Assembly (NCBI GenBank): GCA_963737155.1
Contig: CAVTRN010000002.1
Span: 1,120,001-1,184,000 of the forward strand
Direction: 5' to 3'
Length of the DNA: 64,000 bases
From: Nitrospirota bacterium
Lineage (GTDB): Bacteria; Nitrospirota; UBA9217
In this document: in pieces, positions 35,822 to 62,393 of the stretch
How the letters are laid out: each line of letters begins with the position of its first letter
Numbering within the stretch: the stretch's first letter is position 1
Notes under the pieces: generated by a model
What the model saw: only the letters and a program-made list of their open reading frames with translations
What the model was told of the DNA's origin: nothing
The model's database searches: none
Translations under genes and position numbers: made by a program

Positions 35822-38800
35822 ATGGCATCAGGCGGTCTTTCTTTATAAAACAGTCCTGAAATACCCAGCAGCTTGCTGCTGGGATGAAAAGGACATCCTG
35901 GCGAAGCCAGGATAAGTCTTCAGCTTCTTTGTTGTGCTTTTTTAAGGTTTCAAGTTCCGATGCCCCGCAGCTTGCTGCGGGGTAATTCACTTCACCCTCT
36001 CATCAGACAATGGTTCTTGGAAAAAGTCGGAACGCCGACCGATATTCAGGAAAAGGCTTGGCCCGAAATCGCCGGAGGCCGTAACGTGCTTGTGACCGCG
36101 CCCACGGGTTGCGGCAAGACGTTGGCTGCTTTTTTATGGAGCATTAATCAGCTCGCATCAAGTGCATGGACAGGTGGTAAAGTCCGTGTTCTTTATATCT
36201 CGCCGCTCAAAGCTCTGAACAATGATGTGCTGCTCAATCTGATCAAGCCGCGTGAAGAATTGCGGGAATATTTCGCCCGCTCGGGGGTCTCATTTCCCGA
36301 AATCAACGTTCTCACTAGGAGCGGCGACACGCCCGGAGAGGAAAGGCGGAGGATGGTCCGCAAACCGCCGGAAATCCTGATAACCACCCCCGAATCACTG
36401 AACCTCCTTTTGACTTCCCGGAGCGGTCGCTCCCTGCTGACCGGACTTACGACGGTTATTATCGATGAGATTCATGCAGTTGTGGGTACGAAGCGGGGCA
36501 CCCATCTTATTACTGCTGTCGATCGTCTTGTTCCCCTGTGCGGCGATTTCCAGCGTATTGCGCTTTCAGCTACAGTCAATCCTGCGAATAAGGTTGCCGA
36601 GTTTGTGGGAGGTTTCCGGAAGATCGGGAAAGGCCGGGATAGTTATTTCGAGAGACGTCCTGTTTCACTTATCCGGTCGCTTCAGGCCAAGACTTACGAA
36701 ATCACCGTCTTGTTCCCGCCTGACGTGCGGGAGAAAATGGTTAATGATTCCTGGTGGCCGGCGCTTATCGATTCTTTCAGGGAGATCATCAAGCAACACC
36801 GCTCAACGCTTTTGTTTGCTAATAGCAGGAGGATGACGGAAAAGGTAACTCGGTTGATCAATGAAGCGGAAAAGACCGAGTTAGTCTATGCGTATCACGG
36901 ATCCCTAAGCCGAGAAATCCGGCTGGCTGTGGAGCAGAAATTAAAAAAAGGTGAATTAAAGGCCATCGTTGCCACGAATTCCCTTGAATTGGGCATCGAC
37001 ATCGGAAGTCTGGACAGCGTTGTGTTGATTCAGACCCCGAGGTCGGTCTCCTCTGCACTTCAGCGAATCGGCCGCTCGGGACATTCGGTAGGGGAGAAAA
37101 GCCGCGGTCTGCTCTTCCCAATCCATGGGCGTGATTTTATCGATGCGGCGGTCATGGCCCGTGCCGTAATGGACCAGGACATCGAAGAGGTCCATCCCGT
37201 TGAAGCCCCGCTCGATATTCTGGCGCAGGTTGTGCTTTCGATGACTGCCATGGAACGGTGGGACATCGACGAACTGTATGCTTTTATGAAAACCTCTTAC
37301 CCTTTTCGCAATCTGACGCGCAAGCATTTTGATATCTTGCTCGAAATGCTCAGCGGACGCTATGCCGACAGCCGCTTGCGGGAATTGAAGGCACGTGTGT
37401 CGCTTGACCACATCGATAACACGGTTCAGGCCCACAGTGAAGTGTCTTATCTTATATATATATCGGGAGGCACCATCCCCGCGCGCGGTTATTTTGATCT
37501 GCGACTCAAGGAAACGCACGCAAAGATCGGAGAGCTCGATGAGGAATTCGTGTGGGAGCGGTCCCTCGGCGAGACGTTTACACTGGGCACCCAGCTCTGG
37601 CGCATCGAGAAAATCACGCACAATGACGTTGAGGTAATACCGGTCCGTTCTACTGCGGGCATCTTTCCGTTTTGGAAAGCTGAGGAACAAAATCGCGATT
37701 TTCATTTTTCCGAAAAGATCGGTCTCTTTCTTGAGCAAGCGGACAAGTGGCTCGACACTCCCGGTTTCCGCCAGGAACTTCTGGAGCGGCACGCGATGGA
37801 AGAACATGCTGCCGATGAGCTTATCGCGTTTTTGAAAATTCAGAAGGAGGCAACGGGGAGCAGCCTGCCGCATCGACACCATCTCCTGCTTGAGCATGTG
37901 GAAGAGCCCGGGGGCCGCGGCGATTTCAGGCAGGTCATCCTTCATACCTACTGGGGCGGTAGGGTGAACAGGCCTTTTGCCCTCGCTCTCGCCCAGGCCT
38001 GGGAGGAAAAGGAGCATATTCCGCTGCAGCTTATCGAAAATGATGATGCCATTCTGCTTATGCTGCCGAGGGCATTACGTACCGATGGCCTTTTTTCTCT
38101 CCTGACGCCGGAAAACATCGAATCCTTCCTGCGAAAAAGGCTGGAGCAGACAGGATTTTTCGGAGCCCGGTTCCGGGAAAACGCCGAGCGCGCTCTCTTG
38201 CTTCCGAAATCGGGCTTCAAGCGGAGAATGCCGCTCTGGCTCATCCGGCTGCGGTCCAAGGAACTCTTTGCCGCCGTGCATTCCTATGAAGACTTCCCTA
38301 TTCTGCTAGAGACGTGGCGTACCTGCCTCGAGGATGAATTCGATCTTGATCATGTGAAAACAGTCCTTGAGGAGTTGCATAACGGTGCGATCCGCATGAG
38401 CGAGACAGTGACCAGGGCCGCGTCTCCCTTTGCCGTCAACCTCGTTTGGAAGCAGACGAACAAGTACATGTACGAGGACGATACGCCACTTCTGGCCCGG
38501 GAGTCGGCACTCCGTCCGGATCTTATCAGGGAGCTTCTTTTTTCTTCTCATCTCCGTCCGAAGATCCCCGGCGAATTGATTCGTTTGTTGGACAGCAAGC
38601 TTAAGCGCACGGCGCCGGGATATTCGCCGGTCTCAGCAGTGGAACTTCTGGACTGGATCAAGGAGCGTTTGTTGATCCCGGAGCCGGAGTGGAAGGAACT
38701 GGCCGCCGCAATCAGGAGGGATCATGAACAGGACGCGGCAGCGTGGCTAGCATCCCAGGCAAGAAAGCTGTTATGGATCAGCTGGCCAGGCGTCAGATAC

Positions 38801-40429
38801 GCGCTTCTGTGCGCCATCGAAACGCTGCCGAAGGCGTTTGTGGCCTTCCGCCTTCATTCCGAAGTAGTTTCAGCTCAGCCCGTGACCGATGAGGAAAAAG
38901 TGGAAACTGTCAGGCGGCGGGTCCTATCTTTCCTTCGCGACGTGCCTGAGCCGGCCCGGATAGCTGAAGAGTATGACCTCACGACCTTTCTGTCGGAGTG
39001 GCTAGCCTTTTACGTGCCGGTGGAGAAAGAGGGACTGGCTCATCTGCTCGGCATCACCGCGGAACGGATTGATGAGGCGGCAGAACCGTTGATCGAATCG
39101 CAGGACCTAGTCATGGATCGCTTCGGGGAAGAGAGCACTATCCTCGAAATTTGCGATAGTGGAAATCTCGAAACGCTGCTCCGCATGACCCGGCGCTATA
39201 GACAGCCGTCGTTTCAAGCGCTGCCCCTTGAGCAGCTCTCGCTTTTCCTGGCAGTATGGCAGGGAATCGTTCCGCGGGGGGATTCGCTCGACAACCTCCA
39301 GCAAAAGCTGGAGCAGCTTTTCGGGTGGCCCGCTCCGGTCGGCGCCTGGGAGGAATATATCCTTCCTGCGCGCATGCAGACCTATCGGAGCGAATGGCTG
39401 GACTATCTTATGTCCACGAGCGATTTGATGTGGTTCGGCTGCGGCCTCAAGCGCATCAGTCTTGCATTCACCCAGGATCTCGAACTTTTCCGCCCCGTGA
39501 CTGCAGCGGAGGACGATGGAGAACTTGCCCACCTGATCCCAGACCGACGGGGCAGGTACAGTTTTCTTGAATTAACCGAAGCTTCCCGCATGGACACGGT
39601 CCACGCTACTGAGCTTTTATGGAAAGAAGCATGGAAAGGAAACATTACGAGCGATACCTTTCAGGCGATCAGAAAGGGCGTCATGACTGGTTTTTCCGCG
39701 CAGACCTTCAGGGATGAGGCAAGGCTTGCTTCACGGCGATCGGGGTTTAACAGGTGGAAAGTTTCCCGACCCTTGGAGGGGCACTGGTTGAGAATCGATG
39801 CTCCGCTGAAAGACCGGGATATCCTGGACGAAGAAGAACTGGCAAAGGACCGGATCCGGCAGCTCTTAAAACGCTACGGTCTGATTTTCCGTGAATTCGT
39901 TGCAAACGAACTGCCGGCATTACAATGGCGCGGGATCTTTCGATCGTTGCGACTGATGGAACTTTCGGGCGAGGTGCTGTCGGGCTACTTTTTCGAGGGC
40001 TTACCCGGTCCGCAATTCATCTCGCATGAGGCTTTCCGCTTGCTGCAGCAGCCGCTGCCCCAGGATGCCCTGTTCTGGATCGACGCTGCGGATCCGGCCT
40101 CACTGTGCGGACTTTCCTTAGGTGCCCTGCTGGGACTTCCTTCTCGCCTTGCATCAACGCATCTGGTCTATCACGGCAGTAGGCTCGTCATGCTTTCCCG
40201 GCGATCGGGCAGGAGTCTCAACTTGTTTACGGAGCCCGGTGATGCTCGATTGTCTGATTATTTCTCGTTGTTTAAAGATATTCTCAACCGCGAGTTCAAT
40301 CCGATCCAAAAAATCAGCGTGGAGAGGATCAATGGGGAACCGGCACTCCGGAGCCCCTACCGCGAAGCATTGAAGCGGCTCGGCTTCCGGTCCACGCGAA
40401 ATTCACTGGAGCTGTGGAGAGAATATTGA
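35822..40429 (+). CDS. lhr: Lhr-family large DEAH helicase, interrupted at codon 9 by the mini-element; open frame 35960-40429
   Basis: APTGCGKT, YISPLKAL, DEIH, LSAT, QRIGRSGH; native start ATG 35822 with RBS aagga; removing 35847-35990 restores MASGGLSLFHPLIRQWF. Confidence 0.9.
35847..35990 (+). mobile_element. 144-bp non-autonomous IS200/IS605-type mini-element, copy 1 (inside the 5' end of lhr)
   Basis: Identical to 62250-62393; subterminal hairpins cccagcagc-tt-gctgctggg and ccccgcagc-tt-gctgcgggg; preceded by TTTAT, ends TCAC, no TSD. Confidence 0.9.
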
Positions 40430-40604
40430 CGGTTCAAGCTAGTTAAACCGTTGAAATTGTTTAAACAGTTGAACTGATCTCTGGGACTTTTTTGCATCCC
40501 AATTCGGTTTTCCTGGCATTTTTCTTGATTTGTCGCTATACACCGGATATAATTCATCTCAGTTCCTGAATATTTTATTAGGTCTAACGAGGGAGCGCAG
40601 GGAC

Positions 40605-40838
40605 ATGGCGGAAAAAAAATTTGAAGCGTCGTTGACCCGGCTTGAAGAAATCGTTCAGGAACTCGAAAAAGGAGATATTCCACTTGACCAGTCACTGAAG
40701 CTCTTTGAGGAAGGGATCAAACTTTCACGCATCTGCAACAAACGCCTCGAAGAAGCTGAGCGGAAGGTAGAAATCCTGATAAAAGACAAGGATGGTTCCG
40801 TTAAGGCCGGGCCTTTTGAGGAAGAGGAAGAAGCGTAA
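40605..40838 (+). CDS. xseB: Exodeoxyribonuclease VII small subunit
   Basis: FEASLTRLEEIVQELEKG, LFEEGIKL. Confidence 0.95.
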   Translation: MAEKKFEASLTRLEEIVQELEKGDIPLDQSLKLFEEGIKLSRICNKRLEEAERKVEILIKDKDGSVKAGPFEEEEEA

Positions 40839-40849
40839 TTTTTAACACT

Positions 40850-41740
40850 ATGGATATCAAAACCTATCTCGCCAAAAAGAAAAACATCATAGACAAAACT
40901 CTTGAGAAGCTTGTCCCGTCTTCACCCGTTTTCCCCCCGTCCGTGCATCAGGCCATTCGTTATAGCCTTTTTGCCGGCGGCAAGCGTGTGCGCCCCATCT
41001 TGGCAATTGCCGCTGCCGAAGCTTTGGGTGCAAGGACGGCTGATTTTCTCCCTATTGCCGGATCGCTGGAACTGATCCATACCTATTCGCTGATCCATGA
41101 CGACCTCCCGGCAATGGATGACGACGATTTTCGGCGCGGAAGGGCCACTTGCCACAAAGTGTACGGTGATGCAATCGCGATTCTTGCAGGCGACGGATTG
41201 CTGAACATGGCTTTCGAGGTGTTGTCTGATCCCCGAAGGCTCAAAGCCGTTTCGGCGCAAAGACTTATTGCGATCATCAAGGAAATCTCGACTGCCTCAG
41301 GTGTTCACGGAATGGTAGGTGGCCAAGTTCTGGACATGGAGTCCGAAGGTAAGGAAATCGATTTCCCGACGCTCGAATATATTCACACTCACAAGACCGG
41401 CGCGCTGATTCGCGCTTCTGTCCGGACCGGTGCTCTCTATGCTAAGGCGGGCAAGAAGCAGTTTGCCGCCCTAACTCATTATGGTGAAATGATCGGCCTA
41501 GCGTTCCAGATTGCCGACGATATCATGGACATCACGGGCAGCAGGGAACAAACAGGCAAAGACGAGGGGAGCGATCTCAAGAAAGGCAAGCAGACCTATC
41601 CAAGTTTCTACGGCCTCGACGAGTCGCGGCGTAGAGCAGCTGAAGTCTCCGACCGGGCCATTCTGGCACTTAAGGATTTCGGCAGCAAGGCTGACCCCCT
41701 CAGGGCGTTGGCAGAGTACATCGTTAACAGAGTGAATTAG
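40850..41740 (+). CDS. ispA: Farnesyl diphosphate synthase
   Basis: GGKRVRP, HDDLPAMDDDDFRRG, FQIADD. Confidence 0.95.
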   Translation: MDIKTYLAKKKNIIDKTLEKLVPSSPVFPPSVHQAIRYSLFAGGKRVRPILAIAAAEALGARTADFLPIAGSLELIHTYSLIHDDLPAMDDDDFRRGRATCHKVYGDAIAILAGDGLLNMAFEVLSDPRRLKAVSAQRLIAIIKEISTASGVHGMVGGQVLDMESEGKEIDFPTLEYIHTHKTGALIRASVRTGALYAKAGKKQFAALTHYGEMIGLAFQIADDIMDITGSREQTGKDEGSDLKKGKQTYPSFYGLDESRRRAAEVSDRAILALKDFGSKADPLRALAEYIVNRVN

Positions 41741-41832
41741 AAAAAGAAAAGATCAAGGAGCAAACAGCAACGGCAAGGAAAAACGAAAATGATTTTCCAT
41801 GACATCTACCCATACCCTACTAAGAGGTTCTC

Positions 41833-43755
41833 ATGATACTTGACAAGATAAATACAATTCAGGATCTTCGCGATCTGCCCCATACTGAGCTGCCGCAACT
41901 CGCCGAGGAGCTTCGGCAGGAGATCATTAATGTGGTGTCCAAAACAGGCGGACATCTGGCTCCGAGTCTCGGGGTTGTCGATCTAGCCATTGCGCTACAC
42001 TTCGCCTTCAACACTCCGCAAGACCGCATTGTGTGGGATGTAGGACATCAGGCCTATGCTCACAAGATCCTCACGGGCAGGCGCGCGCAGTTTCCCACAA
42101 TACGCCAGTTCGGCGGGATTAGCGGATTTCCGAAGCGGGAGGAAAGCTCTTTCGATTGTTTCGATGTTGGCCATGCCAGCACGTCCATTTCCGCGGCACT
42201 CGGCATGATCGCTGCACGGGACATCAAGGGAGAGGATTTCAAGGTGATTGCCGTGATCGGCGACGGTTCGATATCTGCAGGTCTTGCCTTCGAGGGCATG
42301 AACCAGGCAGGACATCTGAAGAAGAACCTCATCGTCATCCTGAATGATAACGAAATGTCCATTTCCCCAAACGTGGGAGCGCTCTCTTCCTACCTGAGCA
42401 GGATGATGACTGGCCACTTTTACACCAAACTGCGTAAGGATGCAAAGAATTTTCTACAGGGCATCCCGAAAGTTGGCGAATCCATGTTCAACCTCGCAAA
42501 AAAAGCCGAGGATTCCATCAAAGGCCTTATGGTCCCGGGCATGCTATTCGAGGAGTTGGGGTTTCAGTATATCGGTCCGATAGACGGCCATAATATCGAA
42601 CACCTGCTCTCGACCTTCAGGAACATCAAGGGCTACACCTGGCCCATCCTGATTCACGTGATTACGAAAAAAGGAAAAGGGTGCGAGTTCGCCGAGTGCA
42701 GCCCGTCGCAATACCACGGCACGCCGCCCTTCGATCCTGTAACAGGCAAAACGTTCGTCAAGAAACAGTCGATAATGAGTTATACTGAGGTTTTCGGCAA
42801 AACGATGATCAGAATTGCTGAGGAAAATGACCGGATCGTCGCCATCTCCGCGGCCATGTCGGAGGGCACAGGGTTGGACAAGTTTGCCGAGCTTTTCCCC
42901 GGAAGATTTTTCGATGTCGGCATTGCGGAGTCCCATGGTGTTACCTTTGCCTGTGGTCTTGCCGCGGAAGGGCTCCATCCCGTTGCGGCGATCTACTCCA
43001 CCTTTACCCAGCGCGCCTACGACCAGGTCGTTCACGACCTCTGCCTCCAGAACCTGCCTGTGACGCTTGCCCTGGACCGTGCAGGGCTGGTGGGCGAGGA
43101 CGGCCCCACGCATCATGGTGTATTCGATATTGCTTATCTTCGTCATGTGCCGAACATGGTGGTCATGGCTCCCAAGGACGAGAACGAGCTCCAGCATATG
43201 ATCAAAACCGCAGTCGAACATCCCGGCCCATCGGCGGTGCGTTATCCCCGCGGCATCGGCTGTGGCGTGCCTATGGATCAGGAGCTTAAAACGCTGACTA
43301 TTGGCAAATCCGAGCTTATAAAGGACGGGAATGAAGCCGCGATTATCGCCATCGGCAACATGGTTTGCCCTTCGATCGAAGCAGCAAAACGGCTTGCAGA
43401 CGAAGGGATTTCCGTTGCTGTCATAAACGCGCGGTTCGTGAAGCCCCTCGATGAGGAAATGATCCTCGCTTTTGCCAGAAAGACAGGCAGGATTATAACG
43501 ATTGAAGAGCACGTACTTATCGGCGGCTTCGGAAGTGCCGTGCTGGAATGCCTTGATTCTAAGGGCATTTCAGGTATCAAGACGCATCGCATTGGCATTC
43601 CTGATTTCTACATTGAGCACGGCGCACAGAAAGTGCTAAGGCAGAAGTACGGTCTGGATACCGAAGGTATTTACCGGTCGGTGAAAGACTTTATCGAGAA
43701 ATCCCGATTGAAGGTCGTAGCTCCGGTCGCATCGTTCAAGATGAAGGATGCATAG
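41833..43755 (+). CDS. dxs: 1-deoxy-D-xylulose-5-phosphate synthase
   Basis: GGHLAPSLG, WDVGHQAY, GDG..NDN, DRAGLVGEDGPTH. Confidence 0.98.
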   Translation: MILDKINTIQDLRDLPHTELPQLAEELRQEIINVVSKTGGHLAPSLGVVDLAIALHFAFNTPQDRIVWDVGHQAYAHKILTGRRAQFPTIRQFGGISGFPKREESSFDCFDVGHASTSISAALGMIAARDIKGEDFKVIAVIGDGSISAGLAFEGMNQAGHLKKNLIVILNDNEMSISPNVGALSSYLSRMMTGHFYTKLRKDAKNFLQGIPKVGESMFNLAKKAEDSIKGLMVPGMLFEELGFQYIGPIDGHNIEHLLSTFRNIKGYTWPILIHVITKKGKGCEFAECSPSQYHGTPPFDPVTGKTFVKKQSIMSYTEVFGKTMIRIAEENDRIVAISAAMSEGTGLDKFAELFPGRFFDVGIAESHGVTFACGLAAEGLHPVAAIYSTFTQRAYDQVVHDLCLQNLPVTLALDRAGLVGEDGPTHHGVFDIAYLRHVPNMVVMAPKDENELQHMIKTAVEHPGPSAVRYPRGIGCGVPMDQELKTLTIGKSELIKDGNEAAIIAIGNMVCPSIEAAKRLADEGISVAVINARFVKPLDEEMILAFARKTGRIITIEEHVLIGGFGSAVLECLDSKGISGIKTHRIGIPDFYIEHGAQKVLRQKYGLDTEGIYRSVKDFIEKSRLKVVAPVASFKMKDA

Positions 43756-44346
43756 GGGAGTACCGGAAGAGGGTCGTGGGTCAGGGAAAGAACGGACGAA
43801 GTGCTTCTGATTGATTGCCTTATTTAGTTTTGGAATGACGTCTATTCAATTTTGATTCACCATCCACAGCGTGAAAAGAACAGCAGATGTCCACCTATTT
43901 GCTATCATTAGCAAAGATGACTGCCCAATAAAAAACTTGAGTAATAAACAATGACCTCTGTTGATAACCTATCAGTATCGGATTAGAGTAGTGTCTATAT
44001 TATACTTGGCCGCATTGGTAATTCTGCACCCACTGCTGTATATTATACCAAAGAAACACGGATAGCCGCCAGCAAGATTTACCTACCCGAGAGTTCATAG
44101 GGTCATAGCATTATTTCCCTCCAGCAACAGCGTCAGCTGAGCGGCACTTCCGGCTACGTCAAGGATTTTCGCCTCATTCGCCAAGTACAAAAAGCTATTT
44201 TACGCAATAAAATAATGAGCAATATCGTTTTCATTCGGCTTGACTCGCCGCATTTAGCTAGTACGCCGCTTTTTGAATCTCCGCAGGAGAAAATTTGTTC
44301 GCTCATACATGTTGATTGGGTTGGCATTCTTGCTGAAGTCATAATT

Positions 44347-46230: not shown

Positions 46231-46394
46231 ATAATTCCCCGTATGCATATACTGCAAGCAAAATCATAAGGCATTATTCCGCACTGATTGAGTTTTTCAA
46301 CGTTGTATCGGAATCGCTGTGAGCATCGATTGTCCGTTGACAGCTTGTTTTGCTTCTGATAGGCTCAGGCAGGAAACATTCTTTCGCCTTCGTA

Positions 46395-48275: not shown

Positions 48276-48423
48276 TCGTTTAAACTTAACGCTTTTCCAT
48301 CTGGCTGTCAAATTGTTATATGCCTTAGGCCAGGACATCTCGGCAATACTTGACAACAAATACTCCAATTGTTATTGTATCGAATACACTATCGAGACAG
48401 TCTCAGAGAAGAGAGGAATCTTC

Positions 48424-51444: not shown

Positions 51445-51447
51445 CGT

Positions 51448-52659
51448 ATTCTACGCAGACTGTGGGACTACGCCGATAAGATCTTTGACTTGAGGACGCG
51501 CATAAAGACCATTTATGATGGCCGTGCCCGCCCCAGGATAAAGACGCCCACCGTGGTTACCAGCGTCCTTACGATGATGCTGGCCCGGATGGGCAGTTTC
51601 AATGCGGTCGAGCAGACAAAGAAGTGTTCTGTCTGGAAGGAGCATGACGCGGTGTTGCCGAGCGCAGATACGATCGGCAATATCGTCGCCCAGATAGATC
51701 TCGCCGCGCTAAGGGCGGAAATAAAACATGTCTACCGTCGTCTCAAGCGAAATAAGTCATTACGGCCACTTTTCCCGAATGGCGGTTTCGCCGTGATCCT
51801 CGACGGACATGAGTCAAGCGCAAGCTTCAAACAATGCTGCTGCGGATGCCTCCACCGGAAGGTCGAGACGTCATCGGGAACGCTTATTCAATTTTACCAT
51901 CGCCATGTTATGGCCGTTCTTTTATGCAAGGGTTTTGTCCTGCTCCTTGACCTGGAGATGCAGCGGCCGGGAGAGGACGAAGTGACGGCCGCCAGCCGGC
52001 TCTTTGAGCGGTTGTGTCGTGAATATCCCCGTGCATTTGATCTGGTTGTCACCGACGGGCTTTATGCACGGGCGCCGTTCTTCAAAATGGTTTCCGCTCA
52101 GGGGAAAGAGGCAATTGCGGTATTGAAAGACGACCGGAGGGATTTGCTCCAGGATGCAATGGCTCTTTTTAAACAGGAAGAACCTGTGGTCTTTCAGAAA
52201 GACCGCCTCACCCGCTCCTGTTGGGATATAGAGGGCTTTACGTCCTGGGTACAACTTGGCAAAGAGGTCCGTGTCGTTCGCTCATTAGAAACAAAAATGG
52301 TACGCCGCCAGATGACCGGTCAGGAAGAACGGAGAGAATCTGAATGGGTGTGGGCCACAACGGTGCCAAAAGCGCATATCGCTACGGAACCCTTTGTGGT
52401 AACCAGCCGCAAGCGGTGGGATATCTAAAACAAGGCATTCAATGAGCTCGTCAACTCCTGGCACGCAGATCATGTGTACAAACATACTCCGACAGCCATC
52501 GAGGCTTGCTGGCTGTTGACCATGTTGGCCTATAACCTGTTTGAGGCGTTCATCAATTTAAACCTGAAGCCCGCACTCCGCGCAGCTCATACAAAAGAGC
52601 ATTTTGCCCGCCTGATTGCCGGTGAAATATACAGCCAATGCGCTGGTCGGTCTCCTTGA
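51448..52659 (+). pseudogene. DDE transposase inactivated by a nonsense mutation
   Basis: ILDGHE, VTDGLY, RWDI*NKAFNEL: TAA at 52426-52428 replaces the expected catalytic E; frame continues to 52659. Confidence 0.88.
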
Positions 52660-52910
52660 TCCTCCTGCCTGTGGCCGTACATGAATACAACCATACCAAT
52701 CTTTGCTTTATCGACTAAGGGCAGCCGACTTGGCATTATGGGCCTATTCACTCTTCCCGCGGAAAATGATGTTTTAGAGCGATCCTCTTCCTAAAAACCA
52801 ACTTAAAATAACGTTTCCGAATATGCTACAAGCAAAAATATAAGGTATTATCCCGTACTGATTGGGTTTATCAACGTTGTTACGGAATCGCTGGGGATGT
52901 ATTTATCAAC

Positions 52911-52939
52911 TTGACAAATGGACAGATGTTCACTATACT
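52911..52939 (+). promoter_or_regulatory. Sigma70 promoter with a candidate LexA box in the spacer
   Basis: TTGACA-17-TATACT; GGACAGATGTTC (52920-52931) is GAAC-N4-GTTC with one mismatch. Confidence 0.75.
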
Positions 52940-52946
52940 GGTCTTC

Positions 52947-53186
52947 ATGACGGTCGAGAGAAACGAACCTATTACCGTTTGCGCCGAATTTTCCGGTGGG
53001 GTCGTCAAGCCGGTCTGGTTCTCCCTGCAAGGTCGGCGGATACGGATTAACGAGGTTGCACTTATCTGGAAGACGCGGGAGGGGAGTACGGTCATTCTCC
53101 ATTTCTCCGTTACCGATGGACAGGGATTGTATGAACTTCGGTACAACTCAGGGACTTTTTCTTGGAGGTTGGCCGCTAGTGCGTAG
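52947..53186 (+). CDS. Small beta-rich protein coupled to dinB (DUF6504-like)
   Basis: P.WF...GRRI....W...HFSV....LYELRY...W pattern; stop overlaps the dinB start. Confidence 0.7.
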   Translation: MTVERNEPITVCAEFSGGVVKPVWFSLQGRRIRINEVALIWKTREGSTVILHFSVTDGQGLYELRYNSGTFSWRLAASA

Positions 53187-54399
53187 TCTTCTCCATATCG
53201 ATATGAATGCTTTTTTTGCATCCGTGGAACAGAGGGCCAATCCCGTTCTTCGCGGGAAGGCCATGGCTGTTATCGGATCGGAGCACCGAGGCGTGGTTCT
53301 CTCCCCGTCTTACGAGGCGCGTGCTTTTGGCGTGAAGACCGGCATGACTTACGGAGAGGCGATGAGAGCGTGTCCAGACCTGCGGCTGGTTTCCGCCGAC
53401 CCTGCAAAATATTCTCATACTTGCGAGGAGCTTATCAGCATCTGGAGGGATTTTTCCCCCTTGGTCGAACTTTTTTCCATTGATGAGGCCTTTCTCGATG
53501 TGACGGGCTGCGAGCGGTTGTTCGGCGATCCTGTGCGTATGGCCATCAGGATAAAAGAGCGGGTCTGGAGTGAAAAGAAGCTGACCTGTTCCATCGGCAT
53601 CGCGCCGAACAAACTCTTGGCCAAACTCGGCAGTGATATGCAGAAACCAGACGGACTGGTACTTATAACCCCTAATGATGTTGATGAAGTTCTTGAAAAT
53701 CTGCCGGTGAGAGAGCTCTGCGGCATTGGCCCGAGCTTGGAGCGTAGTCTTGCGATCATGGGAATAAGGACCTGCGGCGAACTTGGCCGCACTCCCCTTG
53801 AAAAGATGACCGCGCGATTCGGCGTTATCGGCGAGAGGCTCCGCGATATGGGACGGGGGATTGACAACGACCCGGTTGCTCCATTGGAAGCAGAATACGA
53901 AGAGCATGCTAAGTCCATCGGACACAGCATGACATTAACAGAGGATTGCACCGATATAGCCCTCATTGAGCGGCATATTCTTCAGCTTGCGGAAAAGGTG
54001 GGACGTAGGCTCAGGCGTGGTTCCTACCATGGTCGTACGGTTGGCCTCACACTCCGCTATGCCGATTTTCAAACCTTTTCCCGACAAAAAAAGCTTTTAC
54101 GTGCCGTGAATCATGGTCTTGATATTTACGCGGTCGCGAGGGAAATTCTTCGCGAGCTTAGGCTGACCCAGCCGGTCAGGCTTGTCGGCATAAGCGTATC
54201 AGGTCTTGATAAGTCTTTTTCGCAGATGCCGCTGTTCGATGGTGATGAGCGAAAGCGGATGTTCATCACGGGGGCAATGGACGAAATCAACGACCGGTAT
54301 GGCGACTTTACGGTTACCTGGGGTAGCCTTGCCGAGCGGTACTGCCATAAGCGTGTAATTTCGCCGGCATGGCGTCCGGGAGGTGATAGGAAGTATTGA
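53179..54399 (+). CDS. dinB: DNA polymerase IV (Y family)
   Basis: HIDMNAFFASVE, SYEARAFGVK, SIDEAFLD, KPDG, clamp motif QMPLF; GTG start after ggagg. Confidence 0.95.
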   Translation: MRSLLHIDMNAFFASVEQRANPVLRGKAMAVIGSEHRGVVLSPSYEARAFGVKTGMTYGEAMRACPDLRLVSADPAKYSHTCEELISIWRDFSPLVELFSIDEAFLDVTGCERLFGDPVRMAIRIKERVWSEKKLTCSIGIAPNKLLAKLGSDMQKPDGLVLITPNDVDEVLENLPVRELCGIGPSLERSLAIMGIRTCGELGRTPLEKMTARFGVIGERLRDMGRGIDNDPVAPLEAEYEEHAKSIGHSMTLTEDCTDIALIERHILQLAEKVGRRLRRGSYHGRTVGLTLRYADFQTFSRQKKLLRAVNHGLDIYAVAREILRELRLTQPVRLVGISVSGLDKSFSQMPLFDGDERKRMFITGAMDEINDRYGDFTVTWGSLAERYCHKRVISPAWRPGGDRKY

Positions 54400-54650
54400 T
54401 AACTTTTGATAATACATTTTTTTGAGTAAAATTGTTCTATATTATGGTATCTTGTTACCATCTTGCGCTTGTATCTTTTCTGGCCATATGTCCTTGCGCA
54501 AAAAGAGGAGATAATAGAGACAAAGGCTAAAGGATGTCTCCTTCTTTTAAATAACTTCATTGATAACTTCGATATCACGCCCTTCGTTCTTGAGAAGGAC
54601 CTTGGCTGCATTAAACCTATATCGGATAAAACGGTCTTTATGCTTCACGT

Positions 54651-54662
54651 GAACGTTTGATC
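54651..54662 (+). promoter_or_regulatory. Candidate LexA box upstream of lexA
   Basis: GAACGTTTGATC, one mismatch from GAAC-N4-GTTC, 18 bp before the TTG start. Confidence 0.55.
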
Positions 54663-54680
54663 GATCATGAGGTGAGAGAT

Positions 54681-55292
54681 TTGAAAAACAAAACAACGGA
54701 GCGTCAGCAGAATGTTTTTGAGTATATTAGGACGACACTCGCAGTGCGGGGAATTCCACCGAGCATGCGAGAAATCGGGGAAAAATTCGGTATTCGTTCT
54801 ACGAACGGGGTGGAAGGGCACCTCGTTGCCCTCGAGCGGGCCGGCCTTATCAAACGGGAGCGGGGAAAATCGCGGGGCATTTCCCTTCCGTCAGGCGAAC
54901 GGCCAGCCTCTGCCATACCCATTATCGGTAAAGTAGCTGCGGGAATGCCGGTACTGTCTCCTGAGAACTGGGAAGGCGAGGTCATGGTCGATTTGCCGCT
55001 CTTTTCGCTTCGGAGCAGCAACAATATTTTTGCCCTGAAGGTAAAGGGAGATAGCATGGTGAACGCTCATATTATGGACGGCGATACCCTCCTTGTCCGG
55101 GCCCAGTCTGTTGCTCAGAATGGAGATATTGTCGTGGTTCTTACCGACGGCGAGGCCACGGTTAAACGTTTCTATGCCGAAAAAAACCGCATACGACTGC
55201 AGCCAGAGAACGACGGAATGAAGCCGATCTATATTGATCGCGGCGAGTTCCGCATCCTGGGAAAGGGCGTGGGCGTGATTAGAAAAATATAG
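54681..55292 (+). CDS. lexA: SOS repressor LexA
   Basis: PPSMREIG wHTH, VAAG cleavage site, GDSM, TVKR; RBS gaggtg. Confidence 0.96.
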   Translation: MKNKTTERQQNVFEYIRTTLAVRGIPPSMREIGEKFGIRSTNGVEGHLVALERAGLIKRERGKSRGISLPSGERPASAIPIIGKVAAGMPVLSPENWEGEVMVDLPLFSLRSSNNIFALKVKGDSMVNAHIMDGDTLLVRAQSVAQNGDIVVVLTDGEATVKRFYAEKNRIRLQPENDGMKPIYIDRGEFRILGKGVGVIRKI

Positions 55293-55305
55293 GGAGCGAT
55301 CTTCC

Positions 55306-55530
55306 ATGAATAAAAACCTGTTGCCCATCGTGCTCATTTTCACTATCCTTGCAGTTCTTTTTTATATTTCATCGCGACAAAAAGTACCCCTGATTCCTGC
55401 CGATTCACTGCATAAAAATATCATAAACAACGCAGTCTGCGCTGATTGTCATAGCCCCGGGAAAAAGGCGCCCTTGAAGGAGAATCATCCGCCCAAGGAG
55501 CAGTGTCTTGTCTGTCACAAGTACAGATAG
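55306..55530 (+). CDS. Small membrane-anchored diheme c-type cytochrome
   Basis: N-terminal TM, CADCH and CLVCH, extra His residues as candidate distal ligands. Confidence 0.8.
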   Translation: MNKNLLPIVLIFTILAVLFYISSRQKVPLIPADSLHKNIINNAVCADCHSPGKKAPLKENHPPKEQCLVCHKYR

Positions 55531-56175
55531 ATACAAACTATAGAGCGATTGTTGAAGAAATTTTGGTCGCATCCCGTTCATTATTCCGAGCACATCGAAG
55601 AACGCCGTTTTTCCAGACGGTTGCAAGACTGTCGCTTTGCTCAGGTATGATGAAAAAAAGGTGTATCAACAAGCATCAAAAACCCGTCTCTTCAGGGCGG
55701 GAATTTAAGATGCTCCCGCATACAAAGAAAAATCATTTGCAATCCTACAGCGTCGTGATGTGCAACGGCTCAGTTAGACCAGCTTCTTATTCTAAATGGG
55801 GTCTTCAGAAAGAAGCCGAAGTATCATGTGGTGCTGCGCATTATGTATGGTAGTTCCACAAACATGGATTTGTTCGATTGCTTCTGGCAACGGAGGTTCC
55901 AACCGCGATCAAGCAAATAGCCTGTGGTGTATATAGGCGATTGTTTCCGGCCATAGTCCATCCCTTCCGGATCTTATCGAAATCAGTTCTTCTCCTATCC
56001 GTATTGTAAAGTAAAATTGTAGCATTACTTAATCTATAAACTGTAACTTACCATAACATATTAAATTTATTACGATTATTCATTGACAAGAGGAGCGCGA
56101 CCGATTAGTATTCCGGAAGAGTTGAAATATCCTGGGTGCTTTTTTTAACGATTCTTCAGCTTGGAGGGATTGGCT

Positions 56176-56754
56176 ATGGAAGGCTATCGGTATCAACAAT
56201 TCGCATATCTTGTTATCCCCTTCGCAGCAGGTATTGAACTGTTTCTTACCGCCAAGTGTGAACGGAATAAACCGAAGAAAGAATGCGCCATGGCCGTTCT
56301 CATGGATGCTATGGGATATGTATTTGTCGGCCTGATACCGGCGGTGTTCGTATTCACGATTTTCAGTCTCGAAAATCATTATTTATCGCAAATAGCTCAA
56401 GTTCTCCACCGCCTCGACCGGTATGGTGTCATGTTTTTCTTTCTCGGATCTTGGTGGCAGGTATTTCTCATTACCTCCCTCCGGGCTCGCCGGACGGCGG
56501 GTAATGGAAAAAAAATGTTTGCCAGCGTATGGATGCCATATCTTGTTTATGGTGCTTTTATATCTGCATTGATTCTCTGGGTCGCTCCTTGGAACCTCAT
56601 GTGGGTGTCGTTTCTGTGGTTTGTCGGAACGTTCGGACTTTTTTCGGTTATCGGTGTTTCCCCCGCCAAGCTTTCTAAAATATTTTTCGTCCTCTTCCTA
56701 TCTGTGCTTGTCTGCGAAAATATCTTCTTTATAGTCCTCGATGCAATCGTCTAA
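56176..56754 (+). CDS. Hypothetical polytopic membrane protein
   Basis: About 6 hydrophobic segments; RBS ggaggg. Confidence 0.75.
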   Translation: MEGYRYQQFAYLVIPFAAGIELFLTAKCERNKPKKECAMAVLMDAMGYVFVGLIPAVFVFTIFSLENHYLSQIAQVLHRLDRYGVMFFFLGSWWQVFLITSLRARRTAGNGKKMFASVWMPYLVYGAFISALILWVAPWNLMWVSFLWFVGTFGLFSVIGVSPAKLSKIFFVLFLSVLVCENIFFIVLDAIV

Positions 56755-56899
56755 AATCAGCTCGAAGGGCATTATCTAGTCTCTTGTGAGGCCTGGCCAG
56801 CGGACTGTGGTATAATGGACCGCAATGTGGGGAAACTGTTTCTGCATGTTCTCTCGGTTGGTTCAAGCAGGGGCATAGAAAACGTTTGGAGTTTAATAC

Positions 56900-57595
56900 A
56901 TGAATGGCAAAATATTAAATCAAGTCGAAATGAGACAAGCCGCCGTTGCCGCTCTCGAAGGAAACGATTTTGAGACCGTGATTACGCTTGCACGCCAGAA
57001 TAGAAAACTGCTCAGTGTTCTCGTGCGGCTTGCTTACGATAAGGAAACGATTGTCGGACGGCGGGCGATCCTTGCTATCGGACAAGTGGCAATGCTCTAT
57101 ATAACAAGCAATTATGAGTTTCTACGCGAGACAGTCCGGAAACTCCTGTGGTCTCTATCCGATGAATCCGGGGGCATCGGCTGGTCTGCCCCTGAGATGC
57201 TCGGAGAAATTGTGAGAGCTGATCCAAAGAAAATGGCTGATGTCGTGCCTCTTATCGCTGATATTTTTTCAATCGAAGAGAAAGTCTTCAGACCTGGTGT
57301 TCTATATGCTCTTAAGAGGATCGCCGAGAGTCAGCCCGAAGCTGTGCTTCCTTTTCATGGCTTAATCATCATCGGTTTAGCCGAAAACGACCCATTGTGC
57401 AGGATTTATTCACTTGAACTGGCAATGTTGCTTAGAGAGGCGATCGATCCTAATCACCGGGAAGAATTACTAACTGAAATAAAAAAACTCCTCTATGATC
57501 ATGCAGAAGCGTTGCTCTACAAAGATGGAGGATTTATCGGAGTAGAGGTTGGGGATGTAGCTGATAAGGTATATAAACATTATTCTAGGCAGTAG
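56900..57595 (+). CDS. HEAT-like protein (DVU0298-like)
   Basis: RKLLWSLSDESGGIGWSAPEMLGEI signature. Confidence 0.8.
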   Translation: MNGKILNQVEMRQAAVAALEGNDFETVITLARQNRKLLSVLVRLAYDKETIVGRRAILAIGQVAMLYITSNYEFLRETVRKLLWSLSDESGGIGWSAPEMLGEIVRADPKKMADVVPLIADIFSIEEKVFRPGVLYALKRIAESQPEAVLPFHGLIIIGLAENDPLCRIYSLELAMLLREAIDPNHREELLTEIKKLLYDHAEALLYKDGGFIGVEVGDVADKVYKHYSRQ

Positions 57596-57855
57596 ATATT
57601 TTAAAAGTGGGATAAAAATATAAAATAATGCTTAAAATAATTAATTGAGTGGGTTATATGAGTAGTTTTTAGCGCAATAGCATGAGTTTGTATATTTATA
57701 TTATTTGATACATAATGATATAAGTATATAATATTAATAAATTATATGCCAAAAAAATAATTTAAATATATTAATTTGTAGCCTTAGGGTTAATTAAAAT
57801 TATAAGGCATTGATTTAAATGAAGTAAAGTTCATTCATTTTTTTATGTTCATTTG

Positions 57856-57884
57856 TTGACAATGCATCGCTCATATTATATAAT
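57856..57884 (+). promoter_or_regulatory. Consensus sigma70 promoter of dnaJ-hspR-clpB
   Basis: TTGACA-17 bp-TATAAT preceded by a very AT-rich tract. Confidence 0.85.
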
Positions 57885-57917
57885 ATTGTTATTATAATAT
57901 ATGAGGAATAGGAATAT

Positions 57918-59054
57918 ATGAGCGCCACAACAAAAAGAGATTATTACGATATTCTTGGGATCAGCAAGAATGCATCAGAGGCTGATATTAAGAAAGCCTT
58001 CAGAAAGCTTGCCAGAAAGTTTCACCCTGATGTCAATCCAGGAGATAAAACCTCGGAGCCGAAATTCAAGGAAATAAACGAGGCCTACGAGATTCTTTCT
58101 GATACCAAGAAGCGACAGCAGTATGATCAATTCGGGCATGCTGCTTTCGATCCAACGTTTGGCCAAGGCCAAGGGACAAGTTCAGGACAGGGATTTGAAG
58201 GCTCTGCTCGCAACACCGGTTATTCCGGCATTCACGGCTTTGAAGATATTTTCGGCAACCTGTTCGGGGGACGCGTCCGGTCGCAAGGTCCGGAGAAGGG
58301 TGAGGACATAACCTATACAGTTGAGGTAGACCTTGAGGACGCGATTTTTGGCAAGACGATGCAAGTCGATCTGAAACGTGAGGTGACTTGCCCCTATTGT
58401 AACGGCTCAGGATCTCAGCCAGGTACGTCGCCAATCACTTGCCCTGCCTGCAGGGGCTCCGGCAGCGTTGCACAGGGAAAGGGTTTCATGCAGACCGTTC
58501 AGCCATGCCCTACCTGTCATGGAACCGGCACAGTCAATCCAAATCCTTGCAGCAATTGCCGTGGCCGTGGCGTTGTTGAAAAGTCAGAACGCATTAATGT
58601 AAAAATTCCGCCGGGAGTGGATAACGGCTCCAAGGTGCGGATGTCGGGACTTGGCGGACGCGGCGAAAGAGGAGGGCCTCCCGGCGATGTATACATCATA
58701 ACGAAAGTGAGGCCCCATACTTACTTTGAACGAAAAGGTGACAACCTGTATTCTGAAGCTGTCGTTACCGTTAAAGAGGCCGCTCTGGGCGAGAAAATCG
58801 ATATCCCGACCGTCGATGGCATGGTGTCGCTATCTCTGCCGGAAGGCGTACAGACTGGACAGCAGCTAAAGTTGAGGAGCAAAGGCGTGCCCCATTTCGG
58901 CGGAGGTGGTGTAGGGGATCACTATGTATCGATCAAAGTTTTAACGCCGACAGGGCTACCCGAACGGGGGAAAGAGCTGTTGCGGGAACTGGATCGGCTG
59001 ATTCCTTCTAATCCTCGAAGCGGGATTACTTTCAGGGGATTTAGTAAGAGATAA
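57918..59054 (+). CDS. dnaJ: Chaperone DnaJ
   Basis: J domain HPD, G/F region, four CxxCxGxG repeats. Confidence 0.96.
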   Translation: MSATTKRDYYDILGISKNASEADIKKAFRKLARKFHPDVNPGDKTSEPKFKEINEAYEILSDTKKRQQYDQFGHAAFDPTFGQGQGTSSGQGFEGSARNTGYSGIHGFEDIFGNLFGGRVRSQGPEKGEDITYTVEVDLEDAIFGKTMQVDLKREVTCPYCNGSGSQPGTSPITCPACRGSGSVAQGKGFMQTVQPCPTCHGTGTVNPNPCSNCRGRGVVEKSERINVKIPPGVDNGSKVRMSGLGGRGERGGPPGDVYIITKVRPHTYFERKGDNLYSEAVVTVKEAALGEKIDIPTVDGMVSLSLPEGVQTGQQLKLRSKGVPHFGGGGVGDHYVSIKVLTPTGLPERGKELLRELDRLIPSNPRSGITFRGFSKR

Positions 59055-59155
59055 AAGCGGGATGCAAGATTTATGACTCGTATTCCAAACGATTTATATT
59101 TGTAACAGGGCAGCAGGTATTTCGAAGTATGTTTCATGCTAATCGAGGTCTCAAC

Positions 59156-59533
59156 ATGACAACACGCGAACAGAGGCTTTTCATGATCAGCGTTGTTTCC
59201 GAAATGCTCGGGATCCATCCGCAAACACTCAGGCTCTATGAGCGTGAAGGCTTCATCAAACCAAAGCGAAGCGTTGGAAACACGCGACTCTATTCAGAAG
59301 AAGACGTGGAAAAGCTCGAGATGATTCTGCGGCTTACAAGAGAACTCGGCGTCAATCTTGCCGGCGTAGAGGTCATTCTCTCAATGCGCGAAAAAATGGA
59401 ACAAATGCACCGTGAAATGAATGAAACCATTCAGCAGCTTCATGAGGAACTAGAACGAGAGATCAGGCGCAGGGAAGAGATGAGAAACGCTCTCGTGCCA
59501 CTAAGAAGGATTCGGATCACGAGGGGGGGATAA
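59156..59533 (+). CDS. hspR: MerR-family heat-shock repressor HspR
   Basis: ISVVSEMLGIHPQTLRLYEREG, TRELGVNLAGV. Confidence 0.9.
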   Translation: MTTREQRLFMISVVSEMLGIHPQTLRLYEREGFIKPKRSVGNTRLYSEEDVEKLEMILRLTRELGVNLAGVEVILSMREKMEQMHREMNETIQQLHEELEREIRRREEMRNALVPLRRIRITRGG

Positions 59534-59613
59534 CGCAGGAGAAATAATGCAGGAGACAGGATGAATGAAGCCTTACCCATCATGGCTCATGTATCATGCA
59601 ACGGGAGGTTATC

Positions 59614-62214
59614 ATGGCACGGTTCGACAAACTTACTCTGAAGGCATCGGAAGCGGTGCAGGCCGCTCAGGACCTGGCAGCCAAGCGTCATCATCAAAAT
59701 ATCGAGGTAGAGCATCTCTTGCTCGCATTACTGGTGCAGCCGGGCGGTGTTGTGTTGCCCTTGATAAAAAAACTCGGTGCCGACGTTGGCGGAATTATAA
59801 CTGATATAGAGCAAAGTCTGGATCGGTTGCCGAAAGTTGAGGGGCTTGTGCAAACCTACCTCTCCCCGAGGCTTGGCAAGCTTTTCGAACGTGCGGAACA
59901 AGAAGCGGAGCGTTTGAAGGATGAGTATGTAAGTACTGAGCATCTGCTCATTGCCGCTGCAGACGGAGACGGCGTAGCGCGCGATATACTTTCCCATCAT
60001 GGTGTTACGCGGGATGGTATATTCACGGTTCTTGTCGATATCCGGGGTTCCCAGCGTGTGACGGACCAGAACCCCGAGGATAAGTATCAAGCCTTGACGA
60101 AGTATGGCAGGGATCTGACTGAAATGGCTCGCAAGGGGAAGCTGGATCCCGTGATCGGGAGGGACGAGGAAATCCGGCGTGTCGTTCAGGTCCTGTCACG
60201 GCGCACCAAGAACAACCCTGTGCTCATCGGAGAGCCGGGCGTGGGCAAAACCGCGATAGCCGAAGGGCTTGCGCAACGGATTGTGAACGGAGATGTTCCT
60301 GAGGGTCTCAAGAACAAACGGGTCGTTGCCCTCGATATGGGCGCGCTCATAGCTGGCGCCAAATACCGGGGCGAGTTCGAGGACCGCCTGAAAGCAGTAT
60401 TGAAGGAGGTAACGGAGGCGAGCGGAGAGGTGATCCTGTTTATTGATGAACTCCACACGGTCGTCGGCGCAGGAGCGACCGAAGGCTCGATGGACGCATC
60501 AAACATGCTGAAACCAGCTCTAGCGCGCGGCGAACTCCGGTGCGTCGGTGCCACGACGTTGAAAGAATATCGCAAATATGTGGAGAAGGATCCTGCCTTG
60601 GAGCGGCGGTTCCAACCAGTGCTTGTACGGGAACCTTCTGTCGAAGATACTATATCGATTCTCCGCGGCCTCAAAGAACGATACGAGGTCCATCATGGCG
60701 TCAAGATCAAGGACTCAGCGCTGGTGAGTGCGGCGATTCTTTCGCACCGCTACATTGCGGACCGCTTCCTGCCGGACAAGGCCATTGACCTGATCGACGA
60801 AGCCGCGTCGAGACTGCGCATGGAAATCGACAGCATGCCAACAGAACTTGATGAGGTCGAACGAAGAATAAGGCAACTTGAGATAGAGCGCGAGGCGGTC
60901 AAAAAGGAACAGGACCCCGCGTCGCGTGAACGGCTCGCTAAGATTGAACAAGAGATCGCCGATCTTTCGGAAAAGAAGGGCAGCCTTCGCACCCAGTGGC
61001 AGTCCGAGAAGGAGGGTATCCAGAAGATCAGATCCATCAAAGAACAGACTGAGCAGTCCAGGATCGAGGCCGACAAGGCCGAGCGGGAAGGGAATCTGGG
61101 ACGTGCCGCAGAGCTTCGCTACGGCAGGCTTCTCGAACTGCAAAAGCAGCTTGATGAGGAGTCGGTCCGCCTCCGTTCGATCCAGTCCCAGTCACAGATA
61201 TTAAAGGAAGAAGTCGACGAGGAGGATGTTGCCGAGATAGTGTCCAAGTGGACCGGCATCCCGGTGAGCAGGATGTTGGAGGGCGAGATGCAGAAGCTGC
61301 TACATATGGAAGACCGGCTCAGACTGCGGGTTGTGGGACAGGATGAGGCCATCAGCGCGATTTCCGATGCCGTACGCAGAGCGCGGGCAGGTATCCAGGA
61401 TCCGAACCGGCCGATTGGCAGTTTTATCTTCATGGGGCCCACGGGCGTAGGCAAGACGGAACTTGCCCGGGCTCTCGCCGAGTTCCTTTTCGATGATGAA
61501 CAGGCTATGATTCGCATAGACATGTCGGAGTATCAGGAACGCCATACTGTGTCCAGGCTCATCGGTGCGCCTCCGGGCTACGTTGGATACGAGGAGGGTG
61601 GCCAGCTCACCGAGGCGGTGCGGAGGCGGCCCTACTCGGTGGTCCTCCTCGATGAGATTGAGAAGGCCCATCCCGAAGTGTTCAATGTGCTGCTCCAGCT
61701 GCTTGATGACGGTAGACTGACTGATGGCCAGGGACGGACGGTAGATTTCAAAAATACGGTAGTCATCATGACGTCTAATATCGGCAGCCAGTTCATTCAG
61801 GACCTTCAGAATGATGAAGAGGAGATGCGGCGTAGAGTTACCGAAAGCATGCGTCAGCACTTCCGGCCGGAGTTTTTGAACCGCGTCGACGACATGATCA
61901 TTTTCCATCCACTTGACTCGGAAGTTCTCAAGCGGATCATCGATATTCAGGTCGGGTTCGTACAGAAGCGGTTATCCGACAGGAAGATTGAAATCGAGTT
62001 GACGGAAAGTGCGAAAGAGCTGCTTGCGGAGGAGGGTTTCGATCTTGTCTATGGTGCGCGGCCGTTGAAGAGGGTCATCCAGCGGGATGTTCTGAACCCG
62101 CTTGCCGGGAAGATGCTCGCCGGCGAGATAAAGGAGGGTTCCCGAGTAATGGTCGATCGTGCCAATCGGCATCTTACGTTCCGGACAATCGATCAGACCG
62201 TCGAAGCTCGGTAA
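59614..62214 (+). CDS. clpB: ATP-dependent chaperone ClpB
   Basis: Two AAA+ domains ([16 protein letters not shown]) and a coiled-coil M domain; RBS ggagg before MARFD. Confidence 0.98.
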
Positions 62215-62249
62215 CATCGGAAAGCGTTAAAAACTGATTAACTTTTTAT

Positions 62250-62393
62250 AAAACAGTCCTGAAATACCCAGCAGCTTGCTGCTGGGATGAAAAGGACATC
62301 CTGGCGAAGCCAGGATAAGTCTTCAGCTTCTTTGTTGTGCTTTTTTAAGGTTTCAAGTTCCGATGCCCCGCAGCTTGCTGCGGGGTAATTCAC
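62250..62393 (+). mobile_element. 144-bp non-autonomous IS200/IS605-type mini-element, copy 2
   Basis: Identical to 35847-35990; preceded by TTTAT, ends TCAC, no TSD. Confidence 0.9.

Follow-up and report, generated by a model that had tools for sequence, protein, structure and literature searches.

The stretch analysed here, which we call the window, comprises 64,000 nucleotides of an uncultured Nitrospirota bacterium (GenBank assembly GCA_963737155.1, contig CAVTRN010000002.1, positions 1,120,001 to 1,184,000 of the forward strand). It holds two copies of a 144-nt repeat, one within the start of a gene for an Lhr-type helicase and the other in an intergenic region, 36 bp past the stop codon of clpB (ORF, open reading frame, 59596..62214; identified by TIGR03346, over the cut-off) and upstream of a GGDEF gene (62835..63980). 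An earlier note on this DNA, made from the letters alone, had described the repeat as two identical copies with three hairpins, AATA and GATG at the hairpin feet and a terminal TCAC, and all of these are present in the 144-mer (Table 1). Direct comparison of 35847-35990 with 62250-62393 gives 100% identity, and the exact repeat in fact extends to 151 nt (35842-35992 = 62245-62395), because a TTTAT on the 5′ side and a TT on the 3′ side are common to both. The 144-mer is too short to hold a transposase gene, and its termini, which read AAAACAGTCC... and ...GGTAATTCAC, are not mutual reverse complements, so it has no inverted terminal repeats. The stems of the two outer hairpins (35864-35883 and 35963-35982) are 9 bp each. 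Folded as single-stranded DNA the 144-mer reaches −30.8 kcal/mol, against −18.0 ± 2.7 for 200 shuffled versions (z −4.69), none of which folds as well (0/200). We read this repeat, hereafter the mini-element, as a palindrome-associated transposable element (PATE), that is, a gene-less derivative of the IS200/IS605 family of insertion sequences (IS), most likely moved by peel-and-paste transposition with the transposase TnpA supplied in trans by a 550-bp IS of the same genome, and we give this reading a probability of about 0.88.

Table 1. Features of the two mini-element copies in the window, with the helicase gene and two further copies elsewhere in the genome
Feature	Position	Strand	Basis or comment
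Target and left cleavage motif TTTAT, copy 1	35842..35846	+	host DNA; C_L, the left cleavage site, is predicted to be its core TTAT
Copy 1, 144-nt non-autonomous IS200/IS605-type element (PATE)	35847..35990	+	BLAST; empty sites
Left guide AATA (G_L), 4 nt 5′ of left hairpin foot	35860..35863	+	predicted to pair with TTAT on the scheme given for IS608 (PMC3201880)
Left subterminal hairpin CCCAGCAGC-TT-GCTGCTGGG, predicted TnpA binding site	35864..35883	+	identical in the 550-bp IS
Middle hairpin ATCCTGGC-GAA-GCCAGGAT	35895..35913	+	inherited from the left end of the IS, where it lies upstream of tnpA
Right guide GATG (G_R)	35959..35962	+	covaries with the cleavage tetramer
Lhr-type DEAD/DEAH helicase ORF, present reading	35960..40429	+	starts at an ATG within the right guide of the element
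Right subterminal hairpin CCCCGCAGC-TT-GCTGCGGGG	35963..35982	+	fold; alignment to the IS
Right cleavage tetramer TCAC (C_R), at the 3′ terminus of the element and 8 nt past the hairpin	35987..35990	+	boundary fixed by empty sites
Invariant T 3′ of the insertion point	35991	+	host DNA, first T of the restored Phe codon; retained in empty sites
Target motif TTTAT, copy 2	62245..62249	+	sequence
Copy 2 of the 144-nt element	62250..62393	+	sub-parts as in copy 1, shifted by +26403
Mini-elements in or beside IS605-type elements	L002:1827-1970 and L001:2894-3037		sequence

The window belongs to a 4.84-Mb assembly of two contigs (C1 and C2; labelled G000 below), and a whole-genome BLAST with the 144-mer returned 26 copies, each in a different flank. 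Nineteen of them are 100% identical to the query and two reach 99.3%; four are diverged (92.5, 90.4, 81.8 and 80.9%), and one is split by a group II intron, which lies between its positions 36 and 37. An additional weak match (68.7%) lies outside the 26. The motif TTTAT directly precedes all 24 alignments that start at position 1, and it is also found at the copy aligned from position 7 and at the split copy, so that the expected location of all copies 3′ of TTAT was borne out in 26 of 26. The next base after the element is T in 25 of the 25 alignments that reach position 144. When the nine copies of the related IS described below are counted together with the mini-elements, leaving out the two most diverged and the split copy, TTTAT^T surrounds 32 of 32 insertions (23 mini-elements and 9 IS), while every other flank position varies; the background for the 3′ base is given by the whole genome, where T follows 30.4% of the TTTAT occurrences. 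The target proposed by the earlier note therefore stands as to what precedes the insertion and is refined from TTAT to five nucleotides plus an invariant T on the 3′ side (+1 T; window 35991 and 62394), which is host DNA.

The boundaries of the element are fixed by empty sites. Copy 1 interrupts the helicase gene after the first base of codon 9, and the orthologue is uninterrupted in all five congeners compared by BLAST (G011, G003, G001, G005 and G002), which read M..(S/T)L(S/T)LFH(P/H)LI.QWF across the site. At the nucleotide level the two closest congeners have ...TTTAT|TC... (G011) and ...GTTAT|TC... (G003), and the other three TTAT or CTAT. Relative to these genes the window carries exactly 144 extra nucleotides between the T of TTTAT and the following T; excising 144 nt, but not 145, restores the length and frame of the helicase gene. 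The 3′ T is thus part of the host sequence, and the target is not duplicated. A second kind of empty site came from Logan contigs of soil and peat metagenomes (runs X1 to X4). In run X1 a 244-nt contig with a depth of 4.6 aligns to 35812-35846 and 35991-36199 with 0 mismatches and skips exactly 35847-35990, and its junction is unambiguous ('both' = 0). Since the flanks of this empty allele are identical over the 244 nt, the insertion of copy 1 is very young. Contigs of other metagenome runs read out of the element into several different flanks. For copy 2 no empty site could be read among the congeners, as its right flank is not conserved there and G003 matches only positions 1-387 and 904-944 of the query. 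With empty sites that lack exactly 144 nt both in congeners and in a metagenome, the absence of a target-site duplication and the fixed ends claimed earlier are confirmed. Variable boundaries, duplicated targets, indifference to TTAT or an assembly duplicate of the segment, which had been named as signs against the proposal, were none of them found.

The transposase expected to accompany such an element, encoded by an element with the same ends, is present in the same genome. BLAST placed positions 1-67 (91%) and 114-144 (90%) of the mini-element about 550 bp apart at nine loci of G000, and these proved to be IS200-type elements of 547-550 bp, all nine lying between TTTAT and T. One lies at L004:1049-1598 (= G000:C2:657548-658097), and there are eight more copies. 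Each has a single ORF of 140 amino acids with the motifs HVHLF and YIRYQ, whose product matches Pfam Y1_Tnp with an E-value of 3.5e-45 over 121 of 121 profile positions; this tnpA is intact in eight copies and frameshifted in one. Its best solved relative is 2xm3 (E 7e-33, residues 4-134 aligned), an entry listed just as 'transposase' which we take to be the TnpA of ISDra2, and the IS608 transposase (2a6m/2vhg) follows with an E-value of 1e-22. Between the IS and the mini-element the left hairpin is unchanged and the right one differs by a single base; compensatory changes (G-C to A-T) are seen in the middle hairpin and in an outer stem that encloses the left one. For the central 46 nt of the mini-element (positions 68-113) a global alignment to the resident IS gave scattered matches only, and their source was not found. 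The IS resembles the IS200 group of ISfinder (e.g. IS200 of Salmonella) in being very small, in having one tnpA and in carrying two stem-loops at the left, ahead of this gene. Members of that group typically measure 600-750 bp, so that the Nitrospirota element is shorter still and may be among the smallest autonomous insertion sequences.

The shared ends also allow the recognition rule to be examined. Structural work on IS608 has base −1 of the cleavage site pairing with the fourth base of the guide. As described for the same element, the cleavage sites are recognised by the 4 nt located 5′ of each hairpin foot, and at the right end C−3 pairs with the first guide base and T−4 with the second, A−2 being unpaired (PMC3201880). 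Under this scheme three Watson-Crick pairs form between TTAT and AATA at the left end, three between TCAC and GATG at the right end of the mini-element, and three between TTAC and AATG at the right end of the resident IS. The two versions of the right end differ only at position −3 of the cleavage tetramer (C or T), and this difference is matched by G or A at the first position of the guide. We then scanned one genome per species for the left-end motif, which yielded 45 stretches in nine assemblies (titled Nitrospirota, Nitrospiria, Nitrospirae and Nitrospiraceae). The left flank contains TTAT in 45 of 45 (TTTAT in 42, ATTAT in 3), and 40 of the stretches have a recognisable right end no more than 640 nt away, in each case followed by T. 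Judged by length these 40 comprise 21 mini-elements and 19 IS; 39 combine GATG with TCAC and one AATG with TTAC, with no discordant pair either here or in the nine resident IS copies. G014 and G019 have full-length elements whose right end is of the GATG/TCAC version. As the scanned sequences are related, the covariation probably represents a single compensatory event and not many. The pairing put forward in the earlier note thus holds at both ends and gains a compensatory change across subfamilies, with the refinement that the right pair of the resident IS is AATG/TTAC.

Further evidence comes from the orientation of the insertions. The cumulative GC skew of C1 falls to 765 kb and then rises, and that of C2 rises to 1.96 Mb and then falls. 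Scoring each insertion by the local skew in a 200-kb window, we found the top strand of the element on the G-rich strand for 19 of 23 mini-elements and 8 of 9 IS, or 27 of 32 overall (two-sided binomial p 1.1e-4, a value from which co-orientation with genes is not separated out); when the three omitted copies are added by hand on the skew, the count becomes 29 of 35. Several insertions precede a long open frame of the same strand by a short distance or fall at its beginning. IS608 and ISDra2 are described as excising from and inserting into the lagging-strand template (PMC5027513). With its top strand on the G-rich strand, which corresponds to the lagging-strand template, the mini-element shows the same direction.

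All the defining features of a PATE that were examined were found in the 144-mer: it lacks inverted terminal repeats and target-site duplications, has subterminal hairpins, a fixed target, a transposase-free length with ends shared with an IS, complementary guides and a strand bias. The proposal of a minimal element mobilised in trans by a Y1 HUH TnpA is therefore supported, there being a partner IS with the same ends and target and 19 identical copies, and it is probably moved by a small transposase of the IS200 type whose gene lies elsewhere in the genome. By analogy with IS608 and ISDra2, we propose that the 140-residue Y1 HUH TnpA from the 550-bp IS would act in trans, binding to both outer hairpins of the top strand. 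The feet of these hairpins, AATA and GATG, would then pair with TTAT in the flank and TCAC at the end of the element, bringing both cleavage tetramers to the active site, and the top strand would be excised as a single-stranded circle. This circle would in turn re-insert 3′ of TTTAT, before T, in single-stranded DNA, chiefly on the lagging-strand template. The mini-element may still be active at present.

Several observations weigh against this reading. The ends of the resident IS are only about 90% identical to those of the mini-element and its right guide and cleavage pair is a different one, so that the resident IS is not the direct parent; the closest right ends belong to IS copies of other species. 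The identification of the acting TnpA, to which the shared hairpins and target point, is weakened by this difference in the right-end pair. Neither the +1 T nor the T at −5 of TTTAT^T has a partner within the known guide pairing, and the 4-nt guides leave these invariant bases, the +1 T in particular, unaccounted for. The hairpins are perfect palindromes with no extrahelical base that would mark the top against the bottom strand, unlike those of IS608. The orientation bias may share in the gene co-orientation already mentioned, and five of the 32 copies face the opposite way. Finally, on its left side the X1 contig extends over only 35 nt, and its source may be the sample behind the assembly; given this, its short arm and its low depth, it demonstrates a polymorphism only, in which insertion and excision are not told apart.

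A rival explanation is that the mini-element is what we propose but is mobilised by another transposase, either that of a full-length GATG/TCAC IS since lost from the genome, of the kind present in G014 and G019, or a distant Y1 TnpA of the IS605-type tnpA+tnpB elements. Over positions 113-144 its right end is 97% identical to the IS of G014, against 90% for the resident IS; the genome also encodes other Y1 TnpAs (about 33% identity), and two mini-element copies lie in or beside IS605-type elements. We nevertheless consider this unlikely. A BLAST search of the whole of G000 found no full-length GATG/TCAC element, the outer hairpins differ from those of the resident IS by just the one base in the right hairpin, and the cleavage sites of IS608 are described as being read by DNA-DNA pairing and not by the protein (PMC3201880). 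A resident transposase acting in trans on the mini-element remains our preferred explanation.

About equally improbable, in our estimation, is a fossil family which spread in one past burst and is now immobile, the empty X1 site being the ancestral allele of a co-occurring strain. Such a history would agree with the X1 contig, which gives presence or absence without direction, and with the copy that has been stable for long enough to gain a group II intron. No circle junction (TCAC|AAAAC) and no excision product came to light in the contigs of runs X1 to X4 either, though contigs would not reveal such a junction. A fossil family fits poorly with 19 of 26 copies being 100% identical, with eight intact tnpA genes and with the unchanged flanks of the empty allele.

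Short, hairpin-rich repeats and an enzyme of a related HUH Y1 family would also be expected of a repetitive extragenic palindrome of the REP/REPIN type, spread by a domesticated, single-copy REP-associated tyrosine transposase (RAYT), and the middle hairpin resembles a terminator on the minus strand, as would suit a selected regulatory or terminator element. We find this very improbable. The mini-element has distinct left and right ends in a fixed order, homologous to those of a nine-copy IS that carries tnpA, its copies are single units and not inverted pairs, and its insertions strike coding sequence (codon 9 of the helicase gene and a tnpB gene); the ends shared with a mobile IS and the insertions inside genes contradict a REP/REPIN origin. 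As for regulation, Rfam returned no match at E <= 1 for the element and its flanks, a scan of the 144-mer for sigma-70-type promoters gave 0 sites, and the one terminator-like site, on the minus strand, is matched by shuffled sequences often enough to carry little weight. An assembly artefact, for which nothing but the perfect identity of the two window copies speaks, or a classical DDE-type miniature inverted-repeat transposable element can practically be dismissed, the former by 26 copies in unique flanks and by independent contigs of several runs, and the latter by the lack of inverted terminal repeats and target-site duplications.

To place the IS200/IS605 derivative within the phylum, we searched 41 genomes and obtained a match to the 144-mer at E <= 0.001 in 16, including G000. 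The matches include ten of the 14 other genomes of the genus and none of the 16 genomes that belong to other families. A 136-nt version, clearly derived from a GATG/TCAC-type IS by internal deletion, is present in G001 in at least 20 copies; G014 has a 137-nt version together with the full IS, and G011 a single copy (93%). The genus-wide matches and the independent 136- and 137-nt forms indicate that the family is old in the genus and that short derivatives arose repeatedly, while the burst of identical copies is specific to G000. We also observed a 46-nt remnant with one hairpin in G009 (L013:1501-1546), preceded by TTTGAT and ending in TTTAC, in which the first half of the left hairpin is joined to the second half of the right one. 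It looks like a deletion of the core between the two similar hairpins, and it parallels the 52-bp 'terminal-only' PATE described from Haloquadratum (PMC3119063).

Other mobile DNA is associated with some copies of the family in G000. The copy that is split carries an ORF-less group II intron of 690 bp (L003:1143-1832 = G000:C2:1595642-1596331), of which there is a second copy at G000:C1:364819-365508; it matches Rfam families RF02001, RF01998 and RF00029. The intron sits on the bottom strand of the mini-element, 12 nt past the complement of the terminator-like middle hairpin. Bacterial class C introns target terminators, and by analogy the placement resembles that preference. Two of the 26 mini-element copies are in or beside two of the three copies of an IS605-type tnpA+tnpB element, one splitting its tnpB and the other lying 208 bp upstream of the tnpA of a sister copy (Table 1).

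A second, older family of short repeats was also noticed (about 130 nt, 75-95% identity), at G000:C2:1337229-1337361 and at least 25 further places. It too has three hairpins, the right one being the same as in the 144-mer, with AATT and a TTTA flank at the left and GATA with a terminal TCAT, mostly then T, at the right. These tetramers would fit the same pairing rule, with boundaries judged by eye only. We considered whether the extra matches to the right hairpin were tied to tnpB; tblastn with the IS605-type TnpB found no adjoining tnpB, and the matches belong to this second family.

Among well-studied systems, IS608 of Helicobacter pylori is the model for cleavage and target choice directed by guides. 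The mini-element shares with it the subterminal hairpins, a cleavage tetramer pairing with the 4 nt at the hairpin foot (−3 with the first guide base, −4 with the second and −1 with the fourth), insertion 3′ of the target without duplication, and the lagging-strand-template orientation described for that element. On the left, the cleavage site is in the flank and 17-18 nt separate it from the hairpin, as against 19 nt in IS608. The tetramers are TTAT and TCAC here and TTAC and TCAA in IS608, the third guide base is T here and A there, and the target is extended here to TTTAT plus the 3′ T; there is no tnpB, and the similarity of the TnpA is moderate. The right site inside the element is 8 nt past the hairpin compared with 10 in IS608, whose hairpins have an extrahelical base (PMC3201880). 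The solved TnpA closest to ours, if 2xm3 is indeed that protein, is from ISDra2 of Deinococcus radiodurans, whose target sequence differs. ISDra2 has the pentanucleotide target TTGAT, carries tnpB and is about three times longer.

PATEs were first named in Haloquadratum walsbyi, as gene-less derivatives of IS200/IS605 elements (PMC3119063), and PATE-like elements have been described from Geobacillus stearothermophilus (PMC10055086) and Halanaerobium hydrogeniformans (PMC7290912). The mini-element resembles the PATEs of these accounts in lacking inverted terminal repeats and target-site duplications, in having palindromes near its ends, in its transposase-free length and IS200/IS605-shared ends, and in forming a homogeneous family of high identity. 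It differs from them in deriving from a tnpA-only IS200-type element instead of a tnpB/IS1341-type one (a guide-RNA gene is therefore not expected in it), in its uncultured Nitrospirota host, and in the central 46 nt without a counterpart in the resident IS. The kind of element is already known, and the case is clear but ordinary, with little that is new in kind for the field.

For the annotation of these genomes the consequences are tangible. The earlier note remarked that gene callers would miss the element; the 144-mer is indeed invisible to them, which is why such elements matter for annotation, but the remark understates the effect, because copy 1 lies inside the start of a gene. Its insertion places TAA immediately after TTTAT, and an ATG at 35960-35962, within the GATG guide, is in frame with the downstream helicase (PRK09751-like in NCBIfam, E 2.8e-222, under the curated cut-off), whose ancestral start is the ATG at 35822-35824. 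As read at present, the first 8 codons of the helicase itself are replaced by 10 element-encoded codons (window 35822-35846, 35960-35990). One copy thus alters the predicted N-terminus of a helicase, another splits a tnpB gene, and a group II intron has landed in a third.

Beyond annotation, the family provides a naturally occurring and clean illustration of the guide rule of IS608, from a phylum that is distant and uncultured; its empty sites are exact, its guide and cleavage tetramers have changed in a compensatory manner, and its 19 identical copies stem from a recent burst. What stands out are the invariant +1 T and the very small size of the autonomous partner. It is conceivable, though on present evidence rather doubtful, that this IS200 lineage is unusually compact (a 550-bp autonomous element and a 144-nt cargo-less unit), reads a 6-nt target, TTTAT^T, beyond its 4-nt guides, and had its right-end pair re-set from AATG/TTAC to GATG/TCAC with mobility kept. 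Should the +1 T prove to be recognised by the transposase itself or through an additional DNA-DNA contact, it would be a new specificity determinant for the HUH Y1 transposases.

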